Below are positions 3 through 63,668 of a DNA stretch of 64,000 bases, piece after piece. The notes under the pieces were generated by a model that did no database searches, was not told the origin of the DNA, and saw only the letters and a list, made by a program, of their open reading frames with translations. The DNA comes from Bacteroidota bacterium (GTDB lineage: Bacteria; Bacteroidota; Bacteroidia; Bacteroidales; JAAUTT01): NCBI GenBank assembly GCA_030706405.1, contig JAUZOO010000004.1:246765-310764 (forward strand), in the 5' to 3' direction. The stretch's first letter is position 1, and every line of letters begins with the position of its first letter. Both the position numbers and the translations under genes were made by a program.

Positions 3-1361
3 AAGTTAGGAATTATGGTTTGGCAGGACATGCCCTCACCCAACTCATACACCTCTATCAACCCGCCGGCAATTGATGAAGCTGAGTTTCATTCCGAACT
101 GATGACCATGGTAAAAAAGCACTGGAACAGTCCATGCATTGTTACGTGGGTAATTTTTAACGAAGGACAGGGCGAACACAATGCCCCAACATTAGTTAAC
201 GAAGTAAGCACACTGGATCCTTCGCGGTTGGTAAACGAATCCAGTGGATGGGAGCACCAAGGATCGGGCAATATTCTGGACACCCACAGTTACCCACCCC
301 CTGCATGTCCGTCCAGTACAACACAAGCTTTGGCCTGTGGAGAATTTGGAGGTATCGGTTATGTAATCCCAGGTCATATTTGGAAGGAAGCTCCTACCTA
401 CGTTATGGTAGACAGCAAAGACAAATTCATGACCATGTATGATAATTTCACCACCGACCTCACTAATTTCAAAACAAACAATGGGTTAAGTGCTGCCGTT
501 TATACCGAAATAACCGATGTTGAAAGTGAGCTTAACGGCTTAACGACTTATGACCGGGCCGTTATAAAACCCGACATTGACAAGCTCAAAGCCTCTAACA
601 CCAAGGCAATCAACCAAAATTTATTTCTGACGGATGTATTACCAACTTCGGAAACACAGGGACACATATGGAAATACACAACCAATGCACAGGATGCCTC
701 GTCGCCCGACTGGAATAGCATTACCTTTAGCAACAACAACTGGATTTGGGGAACAGGCGGCTTTGGGACTCAAGGTACTCCCGGAAGCGTGATCCGAACA
801 ATATGGAACACCTCTGACATCTGGATGCGTCAAACTTTCTCGTTAGGCAATCTGTCTCCGGAAGCAAGGGACAGCCTTATCCTGCGGGTTCATCACGACG
901 AAAACTGCGAGATATACATAAACGGCATTTTAGCCACCTCTTTAGACGGATATACTACATCCTACACATTAGTTCCTTTATCGCAGGATGCCAAAAATCT
1001 GTTTAAAGCAAATTCCGAGAATGTCATTGCTGTGCATTGCCACCAGACCGCGGGAGGTCAATACATTGATGTTGGCATTTCGCTATTAAGCTTTCAGTCG
1101 AGGAAATATGTAGGCGTTAGCACTGTAAAAGGGGCAAAAGCTCTCGAAATCTTTCCCAACCCAACCACAGACACGATACAAATTAAGGGATTTAACAATC
1201 GGGCATTCTCTGCCCATGTAGTAAATCTTTCCGGCGTCGACCAAAATTGCCACACTCACAGCAACGGCGAGATTAATGTTTCTAACTTAAAACCAGGCGT
1301 CTATTTAATCCAGGCCAAGGCTAGCGGCGAAACCTTCTGCTCTCAATTTGTAAAACTGTAG
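3..1361 (+). CDS. Glycoside hydrolase (GH2-like TIM-barrel, C-terminal part) with a CBM-like beta-sandwich and a T9SS C-terminal sorting domain. The 5' end is cut by the window edge.
   Basis: The frame stays open to nt 3. GH2-type motifs are CIVTWVIFNEGQGE, DTHSYP and CGEFGGIG. The middle region WKYTT..DWNSITFSNNNWIWGTGGFG looks CBM-like. The last ~80 aa (LEIFPNPTTDTIQI...GVYLIQAKASGETFCSQFVKL) fit the Por/T9SS CTD pattern. Confidence 0.75.
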   Translation, partial: KLGIMVWQDMPSPNSYTSINPPAIDEAEFHSELMTMVKKHWNSPCIVTWVIFNEGQGEHNAPTLVNEVSTLDPSRLVNESSGWEHQGSGNILDTHSYPPPACPSSTTQALACGEFGGIGYVIPGHIWKEAPTYVMVDSKDKFMTMYDNFTTDLTNFKTNNGLSAAVYTEITDVESELNGLTTYDRAVIKPDIDKLKASNTKAINQNLFLTDVLPTSETQGHIWKYTTNAQDASSPDWNSITFSNNNWIWGTGGFGTQGTPGSVIRTIWNTSDIWMRQTFSLGNLSPEARDSLILRVHHDENCEIYINGILATSLDGYTTSYTLVPLSQDAKNLFKANSENVIAVHCHQTAGGQYIDVGISLLSFQSRKYVGVSTVKGAKALEIFPNPTTDTIQIKGFNNRAFSAHVVNLSGVDQNCHTHSNGEINVSNLKPGVYLIQAKASGETFCSQFVKL

Positions 1362-1457: not shown

Positions 1458-4400
1458 TTATCCTCCCAACTCAGCCATTAAAGAATTCTCCAGTACTTTC
1501 CAATAACGAGAAAGCTCATTGGACAGCCCAACAATCCGATAAGCTTCGGCTACACGGATCGTTTCGTGCAACATCACCAGGTAAAGGCGTATATCATAAT
1601 CAACTCCGTTCCGATAACCGATTGGCAGGGATCGAAAATAATCCAGAGAAGCCCGTGAAACCTCGGCTAACTTTTGAAGCAAAGCCTCTCCCCTCTTTTG
1701 TTCTCCGGCTGCCAGGTATAGCTCGGCCAAAGCCGGCACCTGATGATCAAATGCGACTCGTTCGTTAGGAAGGATTGTCATAATTTTATCCAACACATCA
1801 ACGGCCTTTTGCTTTTTGCCTTCAGCCAGAAGCGCACAGGCTAAATCTGCGAATTTACTGCGCAACGCCACAACCGACAGCGTGTAGATATGCGTATTAT
1901 CGAGATAAACCTTTGGATTGGCAAGCGACGTCCACGAGAAACGTTTCATCAATTTCTGATACTGCAAATCCGTATCCATCAAACCTATGTTCGATTCATC
2001 CCGGGCGTCGGCTCGGTACGGCACTAACCGGAATGCATACCCATCGGGTTGAAGATACTGGTTAATGCCAAGTTCCGTTGGCACCTGCATAGAGGCAAAA
2101 TATACCGGCCGCTCCCAATTATTCGATGCCAAAATATCGATCAACACAAGGTCATCCATCCGAAGGTCAGATCCCTTTATCGTTAGATGAACCGAATCGA
2201 CACTTTTCAATTGTTTATCGGTACGCAAAGCTCCAGACTTCAGCGCATTTACACGGTTAACCCTCAGTTCAACCTTTCGGGAAGGAATATAATTAAACAT
2301 CTTTCCGCCCTGCGAACTCACTTTGGCGCGGGCATCGTCGCTCCCGGCAAAGGCCAGAAGATCATTCACGTCCACCGCGCTATCGGTACGCTCCATAACC
2401 GGCAGGTACGTGCGCTTACCACTTACAAGCTTCTCTTCGGAAAGTGTCATTTTAAGCCCGGGACTATTATGCGACGGCTTTCGCATCTGGTTCACATACC
2501 AGTCGGCACTGAGGTACGGGAGCAATACAATACGCACATCACGACGGATGCCTTCTACCTCCTGCGCGTACCAAAGCGGATAGGTATCGTTATCGGCATT
2601 GGTAAATAAGATGGCATTCGGAGCACACGATTCGAGATAGTTTCGGGCATATTCGAGTACGGCATATCGTCCGGAGCGGTCGTGGTCGTCCCAGTTTTGA
2701 ACCGTCATCAGCACCGGAACGCCCAGCGAGACAGTCGAAGCCACTCCTACGGCCCAACCGGTGTTTAACTTTACCTTCCGAACCAGGAAATCGGCCAGCC
2801 ACATCACCCCAAGGCCAATCCATACGGCAAACGCATAAAACGAACCCACATAAACATAATCGCGTTCGCGTGGCGTGACCGGCACTTCGTTCAAAAAAAC
2901 AACGATGGCGATACCGGTAAAGAAAAACAAAAGCCCCAGCACCAAAAAATTCCGCAAGTTCGAACGATAATGAAAGAAAAAGCCAAACATCCCAAGCAAT
3001 AATGGCAAACAATAATAGACATTGTGTCCGGGATTGGTTTTCAGGTTAGCCGGAAGTTTATCCTGCGCGCCAAGCCTGGCATTATCAAGAAACGGAATCC
3101 CTGAAATCCAGTTTCCGTAAAGCACGTTTCCGTGACCGAGAATATCATTCTGTCGACCGACAAAATTCCACATGAAATAACGGAAATACATAAAGCCCAG
3201 CTGGTACCTCAAAAAGAACCGAAGATTTTCCCCAAAAGTTGGCAACATTATCTGCTGAGTCTGTCCATTAGGCGAGGTTACGGAATACGGCTTCCCCCTG
3301 AACGAAACCCATTGTTTATAAGCTTCGGCATCGCCCGGAGTAAGGCTCGCCATACGTGGGAAAAGCATCAGCGTATTGGCATCAAAAACATAATCGGGAT
3401 TTAAAGGCATGGTAACGTATTTCCCGTTAAACCGCTCATAACTGCTGCGGTCTTTCGTATCTATCACCGGCGAAGCGAACGAATTGCCATAAAATAACGG
3501 CCGACTGCCGTACTGCTCGCGGTTCAGATAATTTTCAAGAGCAAACGGGTCTTCGGGATTACCCATATCCACCGGAGGATTGTCGTGCGAACGGATAATT
3601 ATCAGGCTATACGACGAAAAGCCCAGCATAACAAGCGACAGGTAAATAATTCCGTTATACAGCAGCACTTTCCCTTTACGCCGAAAGTAATAGAGCCCCA
3701 AACCAATAACAGCTACAATGACAGCTCCGCCAATCGCGAAACCTGAATTATAGGGAAGATTCAGACTATTTACCGAGAAAAACTCAATCCACGAAAAAAA
3801 GATAGGAATACCGGGAATGAGTACATAAAGAATACCGCCCAGAATGGCCGAGCCAATCGCAATAGCAATGAATGCGTTCGTCCATGTAAGCGGATGCTTT
3901 TTAAGATAGTACAACAGTACAATTGCCGGAATGGCTAATAAATTGAGCAGGTGTACGCCAATGGCCAGTCCTACGAGATAAGCAATGAGCAACAACCACC
4001 GTTCAGAACCGGGCATGTCGGCATTCTCCTCCCATTTGAGGGCCAGCCAGAAGACCGCTGCCGTAAATAACGATGAAAGCGCATACACCTCGGTTTCGAC
4101 AGCCGAAAACCAAAACGAATCGGACACCGCATAAGCCATTGAGCCCGCCAAACCCGAGAAGAGCACCAGTATTTTCTGCCGGTTTGTGACCTCGCCTGAG
4201 GCGGGCAATAACTTGCGGGCAAACCACGTGATGGTCCAAAACAAAAACATGATGGTTAGCCCGCTGGCAATTGCCGACAGGGCATTGCTCAACCAAACCT
4301 CGCGGGCAGGATTTCCGCCGGCAAACAGCATAGCAACGTGCCCCAACAGGGTAAACATCGGCGCTCCCGACGGATGACATACTTCCAGACCTTTGGCACA

Positions 4401-6973: not shown

Positions 6974-7020
6974 TCCCGTTTCCATGCTTAGGAAATTTAT
7001 TTTCCTAAGCACGGGATTTT
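6974..7020 (+). terminator. Intrinsic terminator of the HU-like gene
   Basis: Outer stem tcccgt/acggga plus inner stem gcttagg/cctaagc (13 bp in total, with a 6-nt internal loop), followed by TTTT. Confidence 0.65.
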
Positions 7021-7110
7021 AATTCCCTGCGCATCCGATTAAAATCCCCTAAGCATCCGATTATATTTTCCTGCGCACAAAAAAATATTCCCTGCGCAGG
7101 CGATTGCTAT
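7001..7110. repeat. Five tandem ~22-bp degenerate repeats (core CCTAAGCA / CCTGCGCA, then ~YCCGATTA)
   Basis: Core octamers start at 7004, 7026, 7048, 7070 and 7091, giving spacings of 22, 22, 22 and 21 bp. An inverted copy TGCTTAGG lies at 6985-6992. Confidence 0.85.
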
Positions 7111-7741: not shown

Positions 7742-9643
7742 TTAATACGCCCTGCGGTCGCGGCCTTCAACATAGTTGATAAACGATTTGTTAGCCACAT
7801 TGTTTCCACCGGGTGTTGGGTAATTACCGGTAAAATACCAGTCGCCAGTATCGTTAGGACAAGCTATGTGCAAGTTATCAACGGTCTGATAAATAACATC
7901 GAGTTCGGCCTTGGTTTCAGAAGTACGCAGCATCGAAGCTATTTTCTTCGAAATCTGCTCCGGCGAAAACGGCTCATAAATAGCCTTTACGTGATTTTCT
8001 ATCTGTCCCTTAGGCAGGCTTTGCGATTCCTTGCAACGCTTATAAACTTCGTTGATAACATTCGTTTTCCCGGTATCCTTAAGCAATGCGATAGCCGCCT
8101 GAAAAGCAATAAAATCGCCCAACTTGGCCATATCAATGCCATAACAGTCGGGGTAACGAATTTGTGGCGACGACGAAACGATCACGATTTTCTTAGGCTC
8201 CAGACGGTCGAGAATCTTTATAATACTCTGTTTTAACGTTGTACCACGAACGATAGAGTCATCAATAATCACGAGGTTGTCAACGCCTTTTTCGAGCGAA
8301 TCGTAAGTAATGTCATACACATGTCCAACGAGGTTGTTACGGCCTTTATCCTGGGTAATAAAAGTACGAAGCTTGGCATCCTTAATGGCTACTTTTTCAA
8401 TCCGGAATTTCTCGTTCATAATGGTATCGAGCAATTCGGGGGTAAGGTTGTTTCCGGCATCGAGGATACGCCGTTTTTTACGCTTGTTCAGGTAACTATC
8501 GGCACCTTCCACCATTCCGTAGAAAGCCGATTCGGCCGTGTTGGGTATAAACGAAAATACGGTATGGGAAACGTCGTAATCAACCGATTTAAGAATATCG
8601 GGGATAAGCAGCTCACCAAGCTTTTTGCGTTCGCGATAGATATCGCTGTCGCTGCCGCGCGAAAAATAGATACGCTCAAACGAGCAGGATTTACGAGGTT
8701 TCGAATCGCGAACCTGTTCGAGGGTAACGTTGCCGTTTTTCTTTATGATAAGGGCGTGTCCGGGCGTCAATTCCTTAACATCCGAAGCTTTTAAGTTAAA
8801 TGCAGTTTGAATAACCGGGCGTTCGGAAGCAACTACAGCCACTTCGTCGTCGTGATAATAAAATGCAGGGCGAATGCCCCATGGGTCGCGGCATACGAAA
8901 GCGTCGCCATGGCCCATGATACCGGCAATGGCATATCCGCCGTCCCACCGTTTGCTCGATTCTTTAAGTATCGAACCCACGTTCAAATTTTCGGCTATCA
9001 GTTTGGTTATTTCGTCATTTTCTTTGCCTTCGGACTTAAACTTGTCAAAAAGTTTCTGCACCTGACGATCCTGAAAATGTCCAACATTTTCGAGTACGGT
9101 AACTGTATCGGAAAAATCTTTAGGGTGCTGACCAAGAGCTACAAGCACATCAAAAAGCTCATCGACATTGGTAAGGTTAAAGTTACCGGCAAGTGCCAGG
9201 TTACGGGTTTTCCAGTTATTTACACGAAGTACCGGGTGAACGTTATTAATGCTGTTGTTGCCGAAAGTGCCGTAACGAAGGTGGCCGAGATAAATTTCTG
9301 CAGCAAACGGAAGATGGCTTTTGGCAGCGCTGGCATCGTCCATAATTCCGGGATGAGCTTTGGTTACTTCATCAAAATCATGGTATATTTTTCTGAAGAT
9401 ATGATCGATAGAATTCTCTTCGATCGAACGGTGCCGGTGAATATATTCGTTTCCGGGATCAGTGTCAAATTTAAGACTTACCAGTCCTGCGCCGTCCTGT
9501 CCGCGGTTGCGTTGTTTTTCCATCAACAGGTACAGCTTTTGCAAGCCATACATCCAAGTTCCATATTTCAACTGGTAATACTCTAGGGGCTTTAGCAGCC
9601 TAACCATGGCAATACCGCAATCATGCTCCAACGCATCGGTCAT
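7742..9643 (-). CDS. purF: Amidophosphoribosyltransferase (long Bacteroidota form)
   Basis: 633 aa. Has the N-terminal nucleophile context HDCGIAMV (Ntn amidotransferase) and the PRTase motif LVIIDDSIVRGTT. Confidence 0.9.
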   Translation of the reverse strand: MTDALEHDCGIAMVRLLKPLEYYQLKYGTWMYGLQKLYLLMEKQRNRGQDGAGLVSLKFDTDPGNEYIHRHRSIEENSIDHIFRKIYHDFDEVTKAHPGIMDDASAAKSHLPFAAEIYLGHLRYGTFGNNSINNVHPVLRVNNWKTRNLALAGNFNLTNVDELFDVLVALGQHPKDFSDTVTVLENVGHFQDRQVQKLFDKFKSEGKENDEITKLIAENLNVGSILKESSKRWDGGYAIAGIMGHGDAFVCRDPWGIRPAFYYHDDEVAVVASERPVIQTAFNLKASDVKELTPGHALIIKKNGNVTLEQVRDSKPRKSCSFERIYFSRGSDSDIYRERKKLGELLIPDILKSVDYDVSHTVFSFIPNTAESAFYGMVEGADSYLNKRKKRRILDAGNNLTPELLDTIMNEKFRIEKVAIKDAKLRTFITQDKGRNNLVGHVYDITYDSLEKGVDNLVIIDDSIVRGTTLKQSIIKILDRLEPKKIVIVSSSPQIRYPDCYGIDMAKLGDFIAFQAAIALLKDTGKTNVINEVYKRCKESQSLPKGQIENHVKAIYEPFSPEQISKKIASMLRTSETKAELDVIYQTVDNLHIACPNDTGDWYFTGNYPTPGGNNVANKSFINYVEGRDRRAY

Positions 9644-58687: not shown

Positions 58688-59920
58688 TTATTCGAGGTTA
58701 TGTTCTTTTATTTTTCGGTACAGCGTTCTTTCCGAGATTCCGAGTTCGTTGGCCGCGAGTTTACGTTTCCCCGCATGTTTATCGAGGGCTTTTTTTATCA
58801 GTTCAACTTCTTTGTCGGTGAGGGATAGCGATTCTTCAAAAACTTCTTCGGTATCCTGTATCGTTACAGCCTCGGGCCGTTTTATTTCGATGGTCTTCGA
58901 ATTTGCTTTGGGCGCTACTATCGGATTATTGTTATTGCCGTAAAGTTTTTCGATAATTTCAGCATGGTCCTCATGGATTTCGGTATTGTCCATGCCTTTT
59001 TGCATGAGGTCGTGAACTAACTTTTTAAGGTCGTTCATATCATTCTTCATGTCGAACAGAATCTTATAAAGGATTTCGCGTTCCGACGAGAAGCTTTTTT
59101 GTTCCTCCGGATTGAATATTGCCGGCAGTTTTACCGGGTTGTAATCCGGCAGGTATTTAGTTAATGTTACAGAGTTAATGTTACGGTTGGTTTCGATTAC
59201 CGAAATCTGCTCTGCAATATTTTTTAACTGACGGATATTACCCGGCCATTCGTACGAACTTAGCATGTGCAGTGCTTCGTCGTCGAGCTGAATGGGCGGC
59301 ATGCGGTATTTTTCGGCAAAGTCGAGCGCAAATTTGCGAAACAGCAGGCTGATGTCTTCAGACCTGTCGCGTAATGGCGGAATAAAGATTGGTACGGTGT
59401 TAAGTCGATAGTATAAATCTTCGCGAAATTTGCCGTTTTGAATGGCTTTTTCAACATTTACGTTGGTGGCGGCAATAACCCGCACGTTCGTTTTCTGCAC
59501 TTTTGAAGAACCCACGCGGATAAATTCGCCGGTTTCGAGCACACGCAACAAGCGTACCTGAGTGGCCAATGGAAGGTCGGCAACTTCGTCGAGAAAGATT
59601 GTCCCGCCGCTGGCTACTTCAAAATAACCTTTCCGGCTTTCAGACGCACCGGTAAACGAACCTTTCTCGTGTCCAAAAAGTTCGGAGTCGATGGTGCCCT
59701 CGGGAATAGCCCCGCAGTTTACGGCAATATACGAACCGTGTTTGCGCGAACTAAACTGGTGAATAATTTGTGGAAACACTTCTTTCCCTACGCCGCTTTC
59801 GCCGGTTATCAGCACCGACAAATCGGTAGGAGCAACCTGTACGGCTATGTCAATTGCCCGGTTCAACCCAAAAGCATTGCCTATAATGCCAAACCGTTGC
59901 TTAACTTTTTGTACTTCCAT
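58688..59920 (-). CDS. Sigma-54 interaction domain transcriptional activator (AAA+ plus Fis-type HTH, no N-terminal sensor domain)
   Basis: 410 aa. Has Walker A GESGVGKE, the GAFTGA-type loop EKGSFTGA, Walker B TIFLDEV, and a C-terminal HTH (LAANELGISERTLYRKIKEH). The AAA+ core begins within ~10 aa of the N-terminus. Confidence 0.88.
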   Translation of the reverse strand: MEVQKVKQRFGIIGNAFGLNRAIDIAVQVAPTDLSVLITGESGVGKEVFPQIIHQFSSRKHGSYIAVNCGAIPEGTIDSELFGHEKGSFTGASESRKGYFEVASGGTIFLDEVADLPLATQVRLLRVLETGEFIRVGSSKVQKTNVRVIAATNVNVEKAIQNGKFREDLYYRLNTVPIFIPPLRDRSEDISLLFRKFALDFAEKYRMPPIQLDDEALHMLSSYEWPGNIRQLKNIAEQISVIETNRNINSVTLTKYLPDYNPVKLPAIFNPEEQKSFSSEREILYKILFDMKNDMNDLKKLVHDLMQKGMDNTEIHEDHAEIIEKLYGNNNNPIVAPKANSKTIEIKRPEAVTIQDTEEVFEESLSLTDKEVELIKKALDKHAGKRKLAANELGISERTLYRKIKEHNLE

Positions 59921-60070
59921 TTTCGCAGTATCCGGAAATTTTAATTAAAATGTATGACAAAAATACAATTTATAGACTGACAAAATTGCAAACCTGTAGA
60001 TTTTTTAACGTTTTTATCCGTTACGAAATTTACTCCGCGGCCTTCGTTTGTATTGTCTTTAGGTATAATA

Positions 60071-60267
60071 TCCCTTTACGGGGAAGTATCGCCTGACTTT
60101 CCGAGAACGTCTCCCAAGGTTGGGAAACCTCGCCCGGTTTTTTTGTTGCCACATCCCACACTTGGGATATGCCGCCTGATTTTTTTCTTGACGATCCACC
60201 ATGAGGGAAACCTTGCCTGACTTTTTTTAGATGCTCCACCACCGTGGAGGCCCTGCCTGACTTTTTT
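60071..60267. repeat. Tandem array of at least 5 units of ~41 bp: short hairpin, then GCCTGA core, then a T5-7 run
   Basis: GCCTGA/GCCCGG cores lie at 60091, 60132, 60174, 60215 and 60255, giving spacings of 41, 42, 41 and 40 bp. Hairpins are tcccaaggttggga (60112-125), atcccacacttgggat (60153-168) and ctccaccaccgtggag (60234-249), with weaker ones at 60071-084 and 60195-208. Confidence 0.85.
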
Positions 60268-60396
60268 GACGCCGACTTTACGGTTGGAGACGACTCATTT
60301 TTAAATTATAGCTCGTACTAAACGGTTTGTCTATTTTTATCATAACAGATAAAACACTTTTGTCTATTTTTGGACTCTAAACAAACTATTTCTGTC

Positions 60397-61152
60397 ATGC
60401 TCAAATTCGCAGGAATCATCCCAGCCCGCTATGCCTCCACCCGGTTTCCGGGCAAACCGTTGGTTGAAATCAATGGTAAAACCATGATTCATCGGGTATA
60501 TCTTCAAGCAACCAAAGTTCTTGAACATGTTTGTGTGGCTACCGACGATGCCCGCATCGAAAAAGAAGTAAAGCGCTTTGGCGGCAGGGTTGTAATGACC
60601 TCACCTAACCATCAGAGCGGCACCGACCGTTGTGCCGAGGCGGCAGCTAACCTTCGGAAGGAATTGGGGATCAATTTCGATGTAATTATTAACATACAGG
60701 GCGACGAGCCATTTATTCAGCCCGAGCAGCTTCGAAAGCTAATGTCGTGCTTCAACAATCCCGAAACGCAGATTGCCACGCTTGTAAAACCGCTTCATAA
60801 TATCGACGACATACTCAACCCTAATCACGTAAAGGTGGTGCTGAACAAAGATAACCGGGCGATGTATTTCAGCCGCTCGCCGATTCCGTATATCCGCGGA
60901 AAAGAAACAGCTTCGTGGGCAGATTGCCATCAGTATTTTAAACACCTCGGCATTTATGCTTACCGCACCGAAGTGCTCAACGATGTTACCCGGTTAAGCC
61001 AAAGCAGCCTCGAAATTGCCGAATCGCTCGAACAACTTCGATGGCTCGAAAACGGCCTCTGCATTGCTGTTGAAAAAACCGATTTCGAAAGTGTCGCCAT
61101 CGACACTCCTGAAGATTTGGAAAAATTGAAAGGAATTGAGTTTGTCGATTAA
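60397..61152 (+). CDS. kdsB: 3-deoxy-manno-octulosonate cytidylyltransferase (CMP-Kdo synthetase)
   Basis: Start taken at the ATG at 60397 (MLKFAGIIPARYASTRFPGKPL); the track ORF begins at an upstream TTG. Has the motif NIQGDEPFI. Confidence 0.9.
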   Translation: MLKFAGIIPARYASTRFPGKPLVEINGKTMIHRVYLQATKVLEHVCVATDDARIEKEVKRFGGRVVMTSPNHQSGTDRCAEAAANLRKELGINFDVIINIQGDEPFIQPEQLRKLMSCFNNPETQIATLVKPLHNIDDILNPNHVKVVLNKDNRAMYFSRSPIPYIRGKETASWADCHQYFKHLGIYAYRTEVLNDVTRLSQSSLEIAESLEQLRWLENGLCIAVEKTDFESVAIDTPEDLEKLKGIEFVD

Positions 61153-61167
61153 TAACTGTTTGCCGCA

Positions 61168-61203
61168 AAAATAGCCATTGAGAATTGCACTCAATGGCTA
61201 TTT
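61168..61203. terminator. Bidirectional terminator between kdsB and the OMP gene
   Basis: Stem aaatagccattgag/ctcaatggctattt with a 7-nt loop. Confidence 0.75.
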
Positions 61204-61229
61204 CGTTTTATCAGAGTGGCGAGTTGCTT

Positions 61230-63668
61230 TTACATGATACCTTTTTTAGAAGCAGATTCAGTTTCAGTATCTGAGTCGCGCTGACGATCCAGCTTCTTAC
61301 CTTCCTTCCCGCTGTTGAAATTAAAGGTTAACCGTACATTTAAGATGCGGTCGTAGTTTATCCACCCATTTTGGGTTTGAATAACATTGTTGGTGATAAC
61401 TGAAGTCCTTTGAAATGTATATTTCGACAACCATGGATTAAGTACATAAGCCGTAATATTCACCTTTTTAGTGATGGGTTTATAGAATCCGGTTACAAAG
61501 TCGAAGTTACGTTCGGTTTTGGTCTGGTGGTTTATATCGGGAGCGTTGTAGTTATACTGAACAAATACTACCCATTCTTTAGGCAGAATAAACTGCGACG
61601 AAAGGTTTAATCTCCACGAGGTGCGGTTTGAAGCTTCAATGCCATAATCGGGATCTGCTTTTGTTTCGCGTTTAAAATAGGTGTACGAAGGGTTGATCGT
61701 CCACCATTTGGCAAAGGCAAGTGTTCCGGAGAGGGTAACCCCGTATTCGAGTTCGCGGCTAACATTGAGGTATTTTTGAACTAAAGTGCCATTATCCGTT
61801 AAATTGACCTGCTGTATACCTTCGGTGATAAAGCTCACGTACGGGCGATAGCTTACATACATTGGGCCCATCAGCTGGATACGGTGTGTAAACTCGAGCT
61901 TATTGATATAGGCCGGGGTCAAATCCTTATTACCTATCGTGGCATTAAAATTATCCTGCTTTACATTAAAGGGGCTTACCTGACTCATGCCCGGACGCTG
62001 TACGGAGCGACGGTAATTAAACCGCAGGGTTTGTTTTTGCCCGAGTTTATATTGTATCGAAGCAAAAGGCAGGAAGCTCGAATAGCTACTGTTGCTTTTC
62101 CCGTTATGCGAGATGTTAAGATCCGAAAATTCATACCGCAAACCCGACTGGAGGTTTAGCTTACCAACCGTCCAGGCGATGTTCCCATAAATGCTGTGAC
62201 GGTCTTCATTGTAATGAATATCGTCCGAAGTTTTGGACACATTTTCGTCGAACGTGTTGTGTATGCGGCTAAAGTTGAGATTGTAGCCACCCGAAGCTTT
62301 AAGTTTATCGGTAAAGGGATGGGTATAGTCGGCTTTAAATGAAAACTGACGGCGGCTATTGTTGGTTCCCTGTTCTCTCTTGTTTAAGCTTGAATAAATA
62401 TAAGCCTGAGTAAACGTAGAATCGTTATAGTTGGCGAGACTTTCCGAATTATTAATGCCATAATAACTTTCGAGGGTCAGTTCCTGATCCTTCTTTGCAA
62501 ATTTATGCTTGTAGAAAAGCGAATAGTCGTTGTTCCAATTTTTGCTGTCTTCGCTCGAAATAGTATGAGAATATGGTGTTGCGGTAGGCGAGGGAAGAAA
62601 TGTGTTTAAAGAATTGAGTTCGTCGTTATTCTTCATTTTGGGGCGAACCGAACTATAGAAGTTAAGCATATCATTATCGCTTAAAAACCAGTCGGCTCCA
62701 TAGTTAAAGCCGCCCCACTGATTGTCCGATTTCCCATTCTGGTGTTGGGTAAGGGAGTCAATTTTCAGTCCGTTAACAAGATCCTCACGAAACACTTCAT
62801 TGTTTATACTCCATTTGCTCATGCCATAGTAGCCCGAAACGAAGAACCTGAATTTCTTAACATAATAGTCGATACTGGCATTGTCGTTGAAAAAAAAGTT
62901 GTTCGATACTGTGGGAGATTCGAGACTTATGCGACCGCTGATTCCGCGTTCAATGTTCTTTTTCATGATGATATTGATGACGGCATCCACATCGGCATCG
63001 TATTTCACGCCGGGATTGGTAATAACCTCAATCTTATCGATAAGGTTCGGGTTTATCTGTTGGAGATAAGATTGGTCCACGCGTTTGCCATTAACCTGAA
63101 ACAGGATATTGTTACTGCCCGCCAGAGTTACTGCATTAGTCCGGTAATCGACGGTAATTTCGGGCAACTGACGTAATAGGTCGAGTCCTGACTGGGCTAT
63201 AGCTGCCGATTTTTCTTTAATGGTGTAAATGGTTTTGTCGTCATCCATTTGCCCGGTAATTTTATAGGCTGTAACGCTGGCTTCTTTAAGCATTGTCGAT
63301 GCAGGAATCAGATTTGTAGTGCCAAAAGTTACGTTTGGCTTCAATAGCGAAACCTGAACATCGGAGATCATTTGTTTTTGATAGCTCATACCTGAGATGC
63401 GGAGTGCATAACGCCCATATCCAATGTTGCTCAGAATGTATTTCCCGTTAATATCAGTGAGGCTTGTTGCCAAAACTGTGGAGTCTTTTTCGCGCAGGAG
63501 TTCCACCCTAGCAGCCGGAATGGCTTTATACGTTTCGGCATCGGTTACCGTGCCTTCAATTTTGCCGGTATTCGCAGCATTCACCGGTATGCCGAGCAAT
63601 AGCATACATCCGAATGCCGATCCGGTAAACCATTTTTTACAATTGATGATTAAGCTTAAAGATTTCAT
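61230..63668 (-). CDS. Outer-membrane beta-barrel family protein / TonB-dependent receptor-like (CarboxypepD_reg N-terminus)
   Basis: 812 aa with a signal peptide. Has the N-terminus GKIEGTVTDAETYKAIPAARVEL, a plug-like region, and a long region of alternating beta-strand pattern ending in an aromatic-rich barrel. Confidence 0.75.
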   Translation of the reverse strand: MKSLSLIINCKKWFTGSAFGCMLLLGIPVNAANTGKIEGTVTDAETYKAIPAARVELLREKDSTVLATSLTDINGKYILSNIGYGRYALRISGMSYQKQMISDVQVSLLKPNVTFGTTNLIPASTMLKEASVTAYKITGQMDDDKTIYTIKEKSAAIAQSGLDLLRQLPEITVDYRTNAVTLAGSNNILFQVNGKRVDQSYLQQINPNLIDKIEVITNPGVKYDADVDAVINIIMKKNIERGISGRISLESPTVSNNFFFNDNASIDYYVKKFRFFVSGYYGMSKWSINNEVFREDLVNGLKIDSLTQHQNGKSDNQWGGFNYGADWFLSDNDMLNFYSSVRPKMKNNDELNSLNTFLPSPTATPYSHTISSEDSKNWNNDYSLFYKHKFAKKDQELTLESYYGINNSESLANYNDSTFTQAYIYSSLNKREQGTNNSRRQFSFKADYTHPFTDKLKASGGYNLNFSRIHNTFDENVSKTSDDIHYNEDRHSIYGNIAWTVGKLNLQSGLRYEFSDLNISHNGKSNSSYSSFLPFASIQYKLGQKQTLRFNYRRSVQRPGMSQVSPFNVKQDNFNATIGNKDLTPAYINKLEFTHRIQLMGPMYVSYRPYVSFITEGIQQVNLTDNGTLVQKYLNVSRELEYGVTLSGTLAFAKWWTINPSYTYFKRETKADPDYGIEASNRTSWRLNLSSQFILPKEWVVFVQYNYNAPDINHQTKTERNFDFVTGFYKPITKKVNITAYVLNPWLSKYTFQRTSVITNNVIQTQNGWINYDRILNVRLTFNFNSGKEGKKLDRQRDSDTETESASKKGIM

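Follow-up and report, generated by a model that had tools for sequence, protein, structure and literature searches.

A tandem array of imperfect 41-bp units lies in the spacer between a sigma-54 activator gene, which encodes a bacterial enhancer-binding protein (bEBP), and kdsB, which encodes CMP-Kdo synthetase, in a Bacteroidota bacterium of the order Bacteroidales (GenBank assembly GCA_030706405.1, contig JAUZOO010000004.1, positions 246,765 to 310,764 of the forward strand). That entire stretch of 64,000 nucleotides is called the window here, and coordinates count from its first letter. The array is a minisatellite of five solid units, possibly six, that is specific to its lineage and, as far as 64 kb shows, to this locus. 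Its most likely origin is tandem duplication, via unequal exchange or slippage, within a spacer whose filler DNA differs from one related lineage to the next. Among the possible roles for the array, we rank first, tentatively and at somewhat less than an even chance, that of a DNA-level cis-element composed of repeated operator-like sites, a phased bend, or both. A sequence-only reading of the same DNA had described the repeats. Two points go beyond it, namely, the position of the array upstream of both core promoters as predicted here and its absence from every examined relative except the closest.

Units of the array

The array covers 204 bp (60068 to 60271) in the middle of a 476-bp intergenic spacer bounded by two divergent ATGs, and its five units are arranged head to tail with start-to-start distances of 41, 42, 41, and 40 bp (Table 1). 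Each unit can be written as TCC-N8-GGA-N6-GCC(T/C)G(A/G) followed by a T-run. Both the divergent gene starts (ATGs at 59920 and 60397) and the five GCCTGA/GCCCGG cores (60091, 60132, 60174, 60215, and 60255) named in the sequence-only reading were located where it had placed them. Its description of five to seven T residues after each core is accurate for four of the five (T6 or T7) and fails for unit 1 (U1), where only TTT is present. Moreover, the T-run starts 12 to 13 nt past the stem, and the earlier figure of 17 to 18 nt must be corrected. The hairpins that it quoted are correct in sequence, with 5 or 6 pairs in U1, U2, U3, and U5 and 3 pairs in U4.

Several searches of the window indicate that the array is not a product of chance. 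The 26-nt pattern TCC-N8-GGA-N6-GCCYGR matches exactly at 60071, 60112, 60154, 60195, and 60235 and nowhere else. When up to one mismatch is allowed, six matches are found (the five of the array and one at 8760) against 0.51 expected, a count that was reached in no shuffle, and a 21-nt degenerate pattern of the unit likewise gives six matches against 0.20 expected. Tandem Repeats Finder (TRF) reports the array with a period of 40 and a score of 104. By the criterion used here, a minisatellite has at least three head-to-tail copies of its unit, in excess of chance, and the array has five. Pairwise identity among the units ranges from 0.48 to 0.70, and all statistics given for the array rest on these five units. 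Elsewhere in the window, TRF also finds a 22-bp unit, GATTATAATTCCCTGCGCATCC, repeated 2.9 times at 7015 to 7077 with 73% matches.

The sequence-only reading had further placed degenerate units on either side of the array, at about 60033 and about 60271. Neither is recovered by a covariance model (E > 10), a position weight matrix (PWM; negative scores), or nhmmer. The left one is thus unsupported, while the right one (U6) is plausible by eye, where CTTTACGG can be seen to be common to U6 and U1.

Distribution in relatives and in wider sequence collections

Whether the units are locus specific or dispersed was a check proposed with the sequence-only reading. Neither the units nor their flanks recur elsewhere in the window, as judged by self-BLAST, nhmmer, the PWM, and the covariance model. 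In relatives, the array was found only in L081, a 963-bp contig from JGI sample 2162886008 whose KdsB is 96% identical. This contig begins inside U5 and is colinear from there into kdsB, which shows that the array is inherited in that lineage and that it breaks short-read assembly. The array is missing from 17 loci examined among relatives (L001 to L005, L020, L082 to L088, and L212 to L215). Neither the pattern nor the unit model, with which 23 relatives' loci were searched, detected a unit in L001 to L088 or L212 to L215 outside L081. The relatives that lack the array keep the gene order SecG-hypothetical-LptE-bEBP<>kdsB, with bEBP identities of 61 to 85% and KdsB identities of 51 to 76% where measured (L001 to L005, L020, P0002, and P0003), and their spacers are 70 to 350 bp long and unrelated in content. 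When the window is included, spacer length across related lineages ranges from 70 to 476 bp, each lineage having its own filler DNA. Judged from these comparisons, the bEBP-kdsB spacer is a hot spot for lineage-specific filler.

Wider scans returned no further array among the matches listed. A scan of genome contigs with the activator motif gave a best match, among the matches listed, that was 72% identical. A scan of metagenome contigs with a single-unit pattern gave at least 120 matches, all of them single and unrelated, with no array among the matches listed; one, in L151, carries an exact 14-mer of U5, lies in low-complexity sequence within a 633-amino-acid (aa) open reading frame (ORF), and was attributed to chance. 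When viral contigs were scanned for two cores next to each other, three unrelated matches and no array of this family were returned. The array has no plasmid or phage similarity, and Rfam covariance models run over 59000 to 61500 on both strands found no match up to an E value of 10. Because none of the libraries searched contains a detectable relative of the unit, the array is not a described element, in agreement with the sequence-only reading.

Signs of constraint on the units

An alternative explanation for the array is that it is neutral filler, i.e., a functionless minisatellite that was made by slippage or unequal crossover and was kept since the promoter spacer tolerates insertions. 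Several features of the locus are consistent with this account, which we regard as plausible but, on the whole, unlikely. Related lineages carry different filler in spacers of very different lengths, and the relatives that lack the array show it to be dispensable. Adjacent units are more alike than nonadjacent ones (0.61 versus 0.53), as expected from tandem duplication. The terminal U6 evolves fast, with 8 of 41 positions differing between the window and L081 (the promoter flank differs at 4 of 84), and the hairpins of the units are thermodynamically ordinary.

Nevertheless, the units have not diverged evenly. Thirteen alignment columns are invariant, and they fall into four clusters, namely, TCC, GGA, GCC.G, and TTT (runs test, P = 0.006). 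Rates differ strongly among columns as well, as evidenced by a variance in conservation that was compared with that of a star tree simulated at equal rates (P = 0.0006). No changes separate the window from L081 in the 3' 27 nt of U5 (0/27), as opposed to 31/251 at the third codon positions of kdsB, a neutral rate of about 12% (P = 0.03). Furthermore, the GC content of the array is about 0.5 within an AT-rich spacer (0.27 to 0.32 in the flanking parts), which also speaks against neutral filler. Together, the conservation data argue for position-specific constraint on the units, with the caveats that the numbers are small and that some ascertainment bias is present, as the units were recognized by their conserved blocks.

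The constrained positions also have a helical geometry. The four clusters are centered at columns 5, 16, 26, and 33.5, the centers of TCC and GGA being 11 bp apart, and the conservation profile has its strongest harmonic at 10.25 bp (P = 0.003 by column shuffle). With conserved blocks about once per turn and a unit of about four turns, every unit would show the same face of the helix. Successive T-tract centers are separated by 42, 42, 39.5, and 35.5 bp (R = 0.74 for a turn of 10.5 bp), which places the tracts at multiples of the helical repeat, the arrangement that characterizes phased A-tracts. A static bend of the array, one of the possibilities raised in the sequence-only reading, is thus geometrically possible as far as tract spacing can indicate.

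A possible cis-element acting as DNA

The position of the array relative to the flanking promoters bears directly on how it might act. Perfect boxes of the Bacteroidetes-type TAnnTTTG (-7) consensus occur only twice in the spacer, at 59965 on the minus strand and at 60365 on the plus strand, and both sit in blocks that are kept in relatives without the array. If core promoters are assigned by these boxes, the array would lie about 100 bp upstream of both predicted divergent promoters, in DNA that neither should transcribe. It forms the central part of some 370 bp of extra DNA by which the two predicted core promoters are set apart in this narrow lineage. The array is, therefore, probably not transcribed, which argues against an RNA product.

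In the reading that we favor, the array would most likely act as double-stranded DNA and not as RNA. The TCC/GGA inverted pair, the GCC.G block, and the T-tract, which are invariant despite about 45% divergence among the units, recur roughly once per helical turn and could constitute repeated operator-like sites for a candidate dimeric or oligomerizing DNA-binding protein. In addition, or instead, the phased T-tracts may impose a modest planar bend, and either the sites or the bend could tune one or both of the flanking promoters. The "hairpin" of each unit would then be a palindromic site instead of an RNA stem. This reading is ranked first because the array lies outside both predicted transcription units, the invariant positions are clustered, the two 3-bp blocks of the inverted pair are one turn apart, and the units span four turns, which would put all sites on one face.

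A number of observations weigh against a DNA-level cis-element. First, the periodicity of conservation is sensitive to how it is tested, as the harmonic is not significant if any harmonic is allowed (P = 0.056) or if blocks are preserved in the shuffles (P = 0.16). Second, one T-tract per four turns would give only a modest net bend of about 45 to 67 degrees, at an assumed literature value of about 18 degrees per A-tract. Third, the changes within the inner palindrome of U5 are complementary, which is unexpected for a protein-binding site and fits a hairpin better, and the T.G pairs of U1 and U6 would be acceptable in no form but plus-strand RNA or single-stranded DNA. Fourth, the promoters are predicted from consensus boxes alone, and the protein that would bind the units is a hypothetical candidate. 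Fifth, any function must be dispensable, given that the array is missing from relatives. Finally, the neighboring activator is not an obvious partner, because bEBPs that are 83 to 85% identical occur in relatives without the array and because no -24/-12 promoter (TGGCAC-N5-TTGCW, up to two mismatches) is found at 59921 to 60396.

The last two facts also bear on a narrower version of a protein-binding array, in which the units are an enhancer, or upstream activating sequence (UAS), for the sigma-54 activator. TCC-N8-GGA resembles UAS motifs with 3-bp half-sites, and the neighboring gene encodes an activator with an HTH_8 domain; the UAS motif of NifA is reportedly TGT-N10-ACA. However, relatives with a closely similar activator lack the sites, and the spacer lacks the promoter element on which such an activator would be expected to work. 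Another version invokes a centromere like sopC of plasmid F, which is bound by SopB and consists of 12 repeats of 43 bp with a 16-bp inverted repeat in each (PMC3177203). The array is comparable in having tandem units of about four turns on one helix face with a short inverted repeat in each, TCC-N8-GGA being present in all five units. In contrast to sopC, which adjoins sopAB on a plasmid and has nearly identical repeats, the array is chromosomal, lies within a conserved chromosomal gene order with no partition genes nearby, shows no similarity to plasmids, and has units that are only 48 to 70% identical. Either version, a UAS array or a sopC-like centromere, is very improbable.

The hairpin and the question of an RNA

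Because each unit contains a palindrome, the sequence-only reading had proposed that compensatory changes favor a selected structure. This claim is weakly supported. In a 5-pair stem model of the five units, 92% of cells are paired, compared with 80% in column shuffles, and 19 of 500 shuffles reach the observed value. The covariation score is 0.30, compared with 0.12 in shuffles (30 of 500 reach it); changes on both sides are seen in only two pairs, and the signal comes mainly from U5, which has TCCAC/GTGGA where other units have TCCCA/TGGGA. At the inner palindrome positions, 8 of 10 cells are paired. Hairpins of the units are no more stable than those of dinucleotide shuffles (z scores of +0.1 to -1.6), and a fold of the whole region gives z scores of -1.0 for the plus strand and -2.3 for the minus strand. 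A covarying hairpin is, accordingly, suggestive at P values of about 0.04 to 0.06, with very few independent events.

Taken further, these observations lead to the alternative that the array encodes a structured plus-strand RNA, or functions as single-stranded DNA, in the form of a chain of mini-hairpins, each followed by a single-stranded GCCUGA and a U-run. Such a molecule might titrate a protein or serve as a long leader of kdsB. The stem of U5 has been kept through changes on both sides, and, by eye, U6 and its L081 version retain pairing through two changes (G.T to A-T and C-G to T.G). T.G pairs are confined to the plus-strand sense, and U2, U3, U5, and U6 each have the mini-hairpin as their minimum-free-energy structure. 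In addition, GC content is raised, and the single-stranded GCCUGA is conserved. Even so, we consider a plus-strand RNA improbable. No promoter box lies upstream of the array on either strand, and no terminator follows it. Covariation amounts to two pairs in five sequences, the fold z scores are insignificant, and there is neither an Rfam family nor an array in the relatives. It should also be considered that templated (quasipalindrome) mutation can yield changes that look compensatory without selection.

A more ambitious proposal, which we consider doubtful, is that the units represent a regulatory innovation of this lineage. They might be phased bipartite sites, each made up of the TCC-N8-GGA palindrome with GCCTGA and a T-tract after it and all facing one side of the helix, that assemble an oligomeric DNA-binding protein and thereby couple or insulate the kdsB and activator promoters, or they might form a multi-hairpin plus-strand RNA of a kind not seen before that titrates a GCCUGA-binding protein.

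Several other interpretations of the repeats were rejected. An array of intrinsic terminators needs a U-run 0 to 2 nt past a GC-rich stem, and the distance measured here is far longer; a terminator scan flagged a single alternative hairpin, which lies in U2, and shuffles gave counts that this did not exceed. CRISPR loci are expected to have near-identical repeats of 23 to 47 nt and unique spacers of 26 to 72 nt. Here, about 20 nt are conserved at 70 to 80% identity, and the variable 20 or so nucleotides of the unit are themselves related between units, which counts against CRISPR spacers. The sequence-only reading had dismissed both possibilities, correctly, as well as a 70-aa minus-strand ORF that overlaps the array. 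The periods of the array are not multiples of 3, as they would be in a coding repeat or pseudogene, and the ORF has no homologue; in a database of 5.8 billion protein sequences, none shares even three 5-residue words with it. A pseudoknot between the loop and the downstream spacer can be drawn for U2 only (AGGTT/AACCT) and does not recur. DnaA boxes, a CsrA-type GGA sponge, and a preQ1-like fold were dropped by eye, as their motifs are inconsistent across units.

Comparison with known repeats and mobile elements

Imperfect intergenic minisatellites with a palindromic core are already well known in bacteria as a kind of element. The array is most readily compared with bacterial intergenic minisatellites or variable-number tandem repeats, such as the mycobacterial interspersed repetitive units (MIRUs; 40 to 100 bp), with which it shares imperfect head-to-tail copies of 40 to 42 bp in an intergenic position and confinement to one lineage. 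It differs from them in being, as far as 64 kb shows, a single locus and in lying between divergent promoters instead of inside an operon. Repetitive extragenic palindromic (REP) elements, their mosaic combinations (BIME), and STAR-type repeats are short GC-rich palindromes or direct repeats at intervals of about 40 bp; they form dispersed, high-copy families, and REP clusters usually alternate in orientation. The array resembles them in its short, imperfect, intergenic palindromes that are GC richer than their surroundings, but it shows no other copy in the 64 kb. Curved DNA with phased A/T-tracts is similar in that T5 to T7 tracts lie on one strand, with centers 42, 42, and 39.5 bp apart, about 100 to 300 bp upstream of two promoters. 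Such DNA has one tract per turn, whereas the array has one per four turns and a smaller predicted bend.

Another alternative is that the array is a module of a nonautonomous mobile element. In this scenario, which seems to us as improbable as a plus-strand RNA, an insertion of about 370 bp resembling a MITE (miniature inverted-repeat transposable element) would have brought in unique leader and tail flanks together with internal tandem repeats. The extra DNA at this locus does have that layout, as the 204-bp array stands between nonrepeat flanks of about 76 and about 89 bp, and the L081 contig breaks within the array. A 15-nt inverted repeat with 13 of 15 matches brackets the array (60012 to 60026 and 60340 to 60354), but 33% of shuffles contain one as good or better, which puts it at chance level. 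There is precedent in Bacteroidales, to which Porphyromonas gingivalis belongs: MITEPgRS, with a 41-nt tandem Repeat C (PMC2575886), and BrickBuilt, with 23-nt repeats (PMC4596501), are always intergenic in that species. The likeness extends to a Bacteroidota host, an intergenic location, internal tandem repeats, nonrepeat flanks, and, for Repeat C, a unit length of 41 nt, in a comparison made by description and not by sequence. BOX elements of pneumococci can be named as comparable to this MITE-type scenario. Against it, MITEPgRS and BrickBuilt carry IS5-type terminal inverted repeats and are dispersed in 10 to 20 copies per genome. The array has no significant terminal inverted repeat, with none of the IS5 type (GAGAC..TTGCA; GAGACYNTTGCA) nearby and no target-site duplication seen. 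Nor was a second copy of a unit or flank found in the 64 kb, in the 23 relatives' loci searched with the model, in viral contigs, or among the metagenome matches listed.

Features of the flanking DNA

The genes neighboring the array encode LptE, bEBP, KdsB, and a TonB-type receptor. The coordinates of the array, the adjoining genes, and the predicted elements of the spacer are collected in Table 1.

Table 1. Coordinates of the repeat units and of features around them in the window
Feature	Positions	Strand	Description
Sigma-54 activator gene (bEBP)	58688..59920	-	AAA+ domain and HTH_8, without a receiver domain; reads away from the array
Conserved promoter/operator-like block	59951..59991	-	TGACAAAAATACAA ... 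CTGACAAAATTGCAA; holds the minus-strand TAnnTTTG box; adjoins the bEBP gene, outside the array
Minus-strand TAnnTTTG box	59965-59958	-	45 nt ahead of the activator ATG; 103 bp outside the array
Left flank of extra DNA	59992..60067	.	AT-rich; missing from relative L088; no detectable unit
Spurious 70-aa ORF	60030..60242	-	Overlaps the array
Unit 1 (U1)	60068..60108	+	TCCCT-ttac-GGGGA palindrome, 5 pairs including one T.G; GCCTGA at 60091; TTT only; covariance model score, 39.3 bits
Unit 2 (U2)	60109..60150	+	TCCCA-aggt-TGGGA palindrome; GCCCGG at 60132; T7 at 60138-60144; 41.3 bits
Unit 3 (U3)	60151..60191	+	ATCCCA-cact-TGGGAT palindrome; GCCTGA at 60174; T7 at 60180-60186; 44 bits
Unit 4 (U4)	60192..60231	+	Broken palindrome TCCACCATGAGGGA, 3 pairs only; GCCTGA at 60215; T7 at 60222-60228; 39.2 bits
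Unit 5 (U5)	60232..60271	+	CTCCAC-cacc-GTGGAG palindrome, inner pairs changed on both sides; GCCTGA at 60255; T6 at 60262-60267; 42.7 bits
Possible sixth, degenerate unit (U6)	60272..60312	+	6-pair CCGACT-ttac-GGTTGG hairpin; TCA replaces GCCTGA; T5 at 60298-60302; by eye only
Plus-strand TAnnTTTG (-7-type) box	60365..60372	+	25 nt ahead of the kdsB ATG; 94 bp downstream of the last solid unit; kept in L081, L088, and L212
kdsB (CMP-Kdo synthetase)	60397..61152	+	Reads away from the array

The block at 59951 to 59991 is the sole part of the spacer that is kept across relatives. It contains a direct repeat, with TGACAAAAATACAA followed after 9 nt by CTGACAAAATTRCAA, and has counterparts in L082 (2806 to 2845), L088 (410 to 450), L213 (about 1068 to 1105, minus strand), and L212 (about 2180 to 2222, minus strand). 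Relative to the block, the lineage-specific extra DNA is situated toward bEBP in L212 and toward kdsB in the window, L082, and L213. Given these differing sides, the block may be a shared operator and not simply the bEBP promoter.

On the other side of the array, TTTGTCTATTTTT is present twice upstream of kdsB, 33 bp apart (60326 to 60338 and 60359 to 60371), and both copies are kept in L081. The second copy holds the perfect TAnnTTTG box, and the first holds an imperfect one (TATTTTTA). To judge from these motifs, the kdsB promoter may itself be duplicated.

The spacers of relatives contain some noteworthy sequences of their own. An insert shared by L082 (2895 to 2990) and L085 (1835 to 1925) combines two direct copies of GGCATAAG with two inverted ones (GGCATAAGG ... 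GGCATAAGG ... CTTATGCC ... CTTATGCC) and looks like a cluster of putative regulator sites. The AT-rich 350-bp spacer of L213 has an isolated GC-rich hairpin, CCCGCC-catt-GGCGGG, at about 895 to 925 on the minus strand, with GCCTG ahead of it.

Two further observations concern sequences encountered in the wider scans. The 31-mer TCCTCGTGAGAGGATGCGCMGCCTGATTTTT, which is unrelated to the array, occurs in at least 10 soil-metagenome contigs (L117, L123, L126, L132, L158, L181, L190, L195, L200, and L205). Its copy in L123 (158 to 188) comes after a stop codon, no Rfam match was found in the six loci scanned, and it probably represents a hairpin at gene ends that one soil lineage has conserved. 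Also, three bEBP homologues (P0122, P0131, and P0208; 533 to 543 aa) are overlong by about 130 aa through a duplicated internal segment. The idea that they reflect read-through of the array was dropped, and they are most likely assembly artifacts in metagenome contigs.

Implications

Whether the array is functional or neutral, it has no bearing on a long-standing open question. If it is neutral, its value is mainly practical, as a possible marker of strains and as an illustration of how short-read assemblies break at such repeats, which is evidenced by the L081 contig that ends inside the array. If the units are functional, they would exemplify a promoter spacer gaining a multisite cis-element by tandem duplication within one lineage. 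In that case, the element would stand beside an essential lipopolysaccharide gene and a sigma-54 activator with conservation throughout Bacteroidota, about the targets of which little is known.

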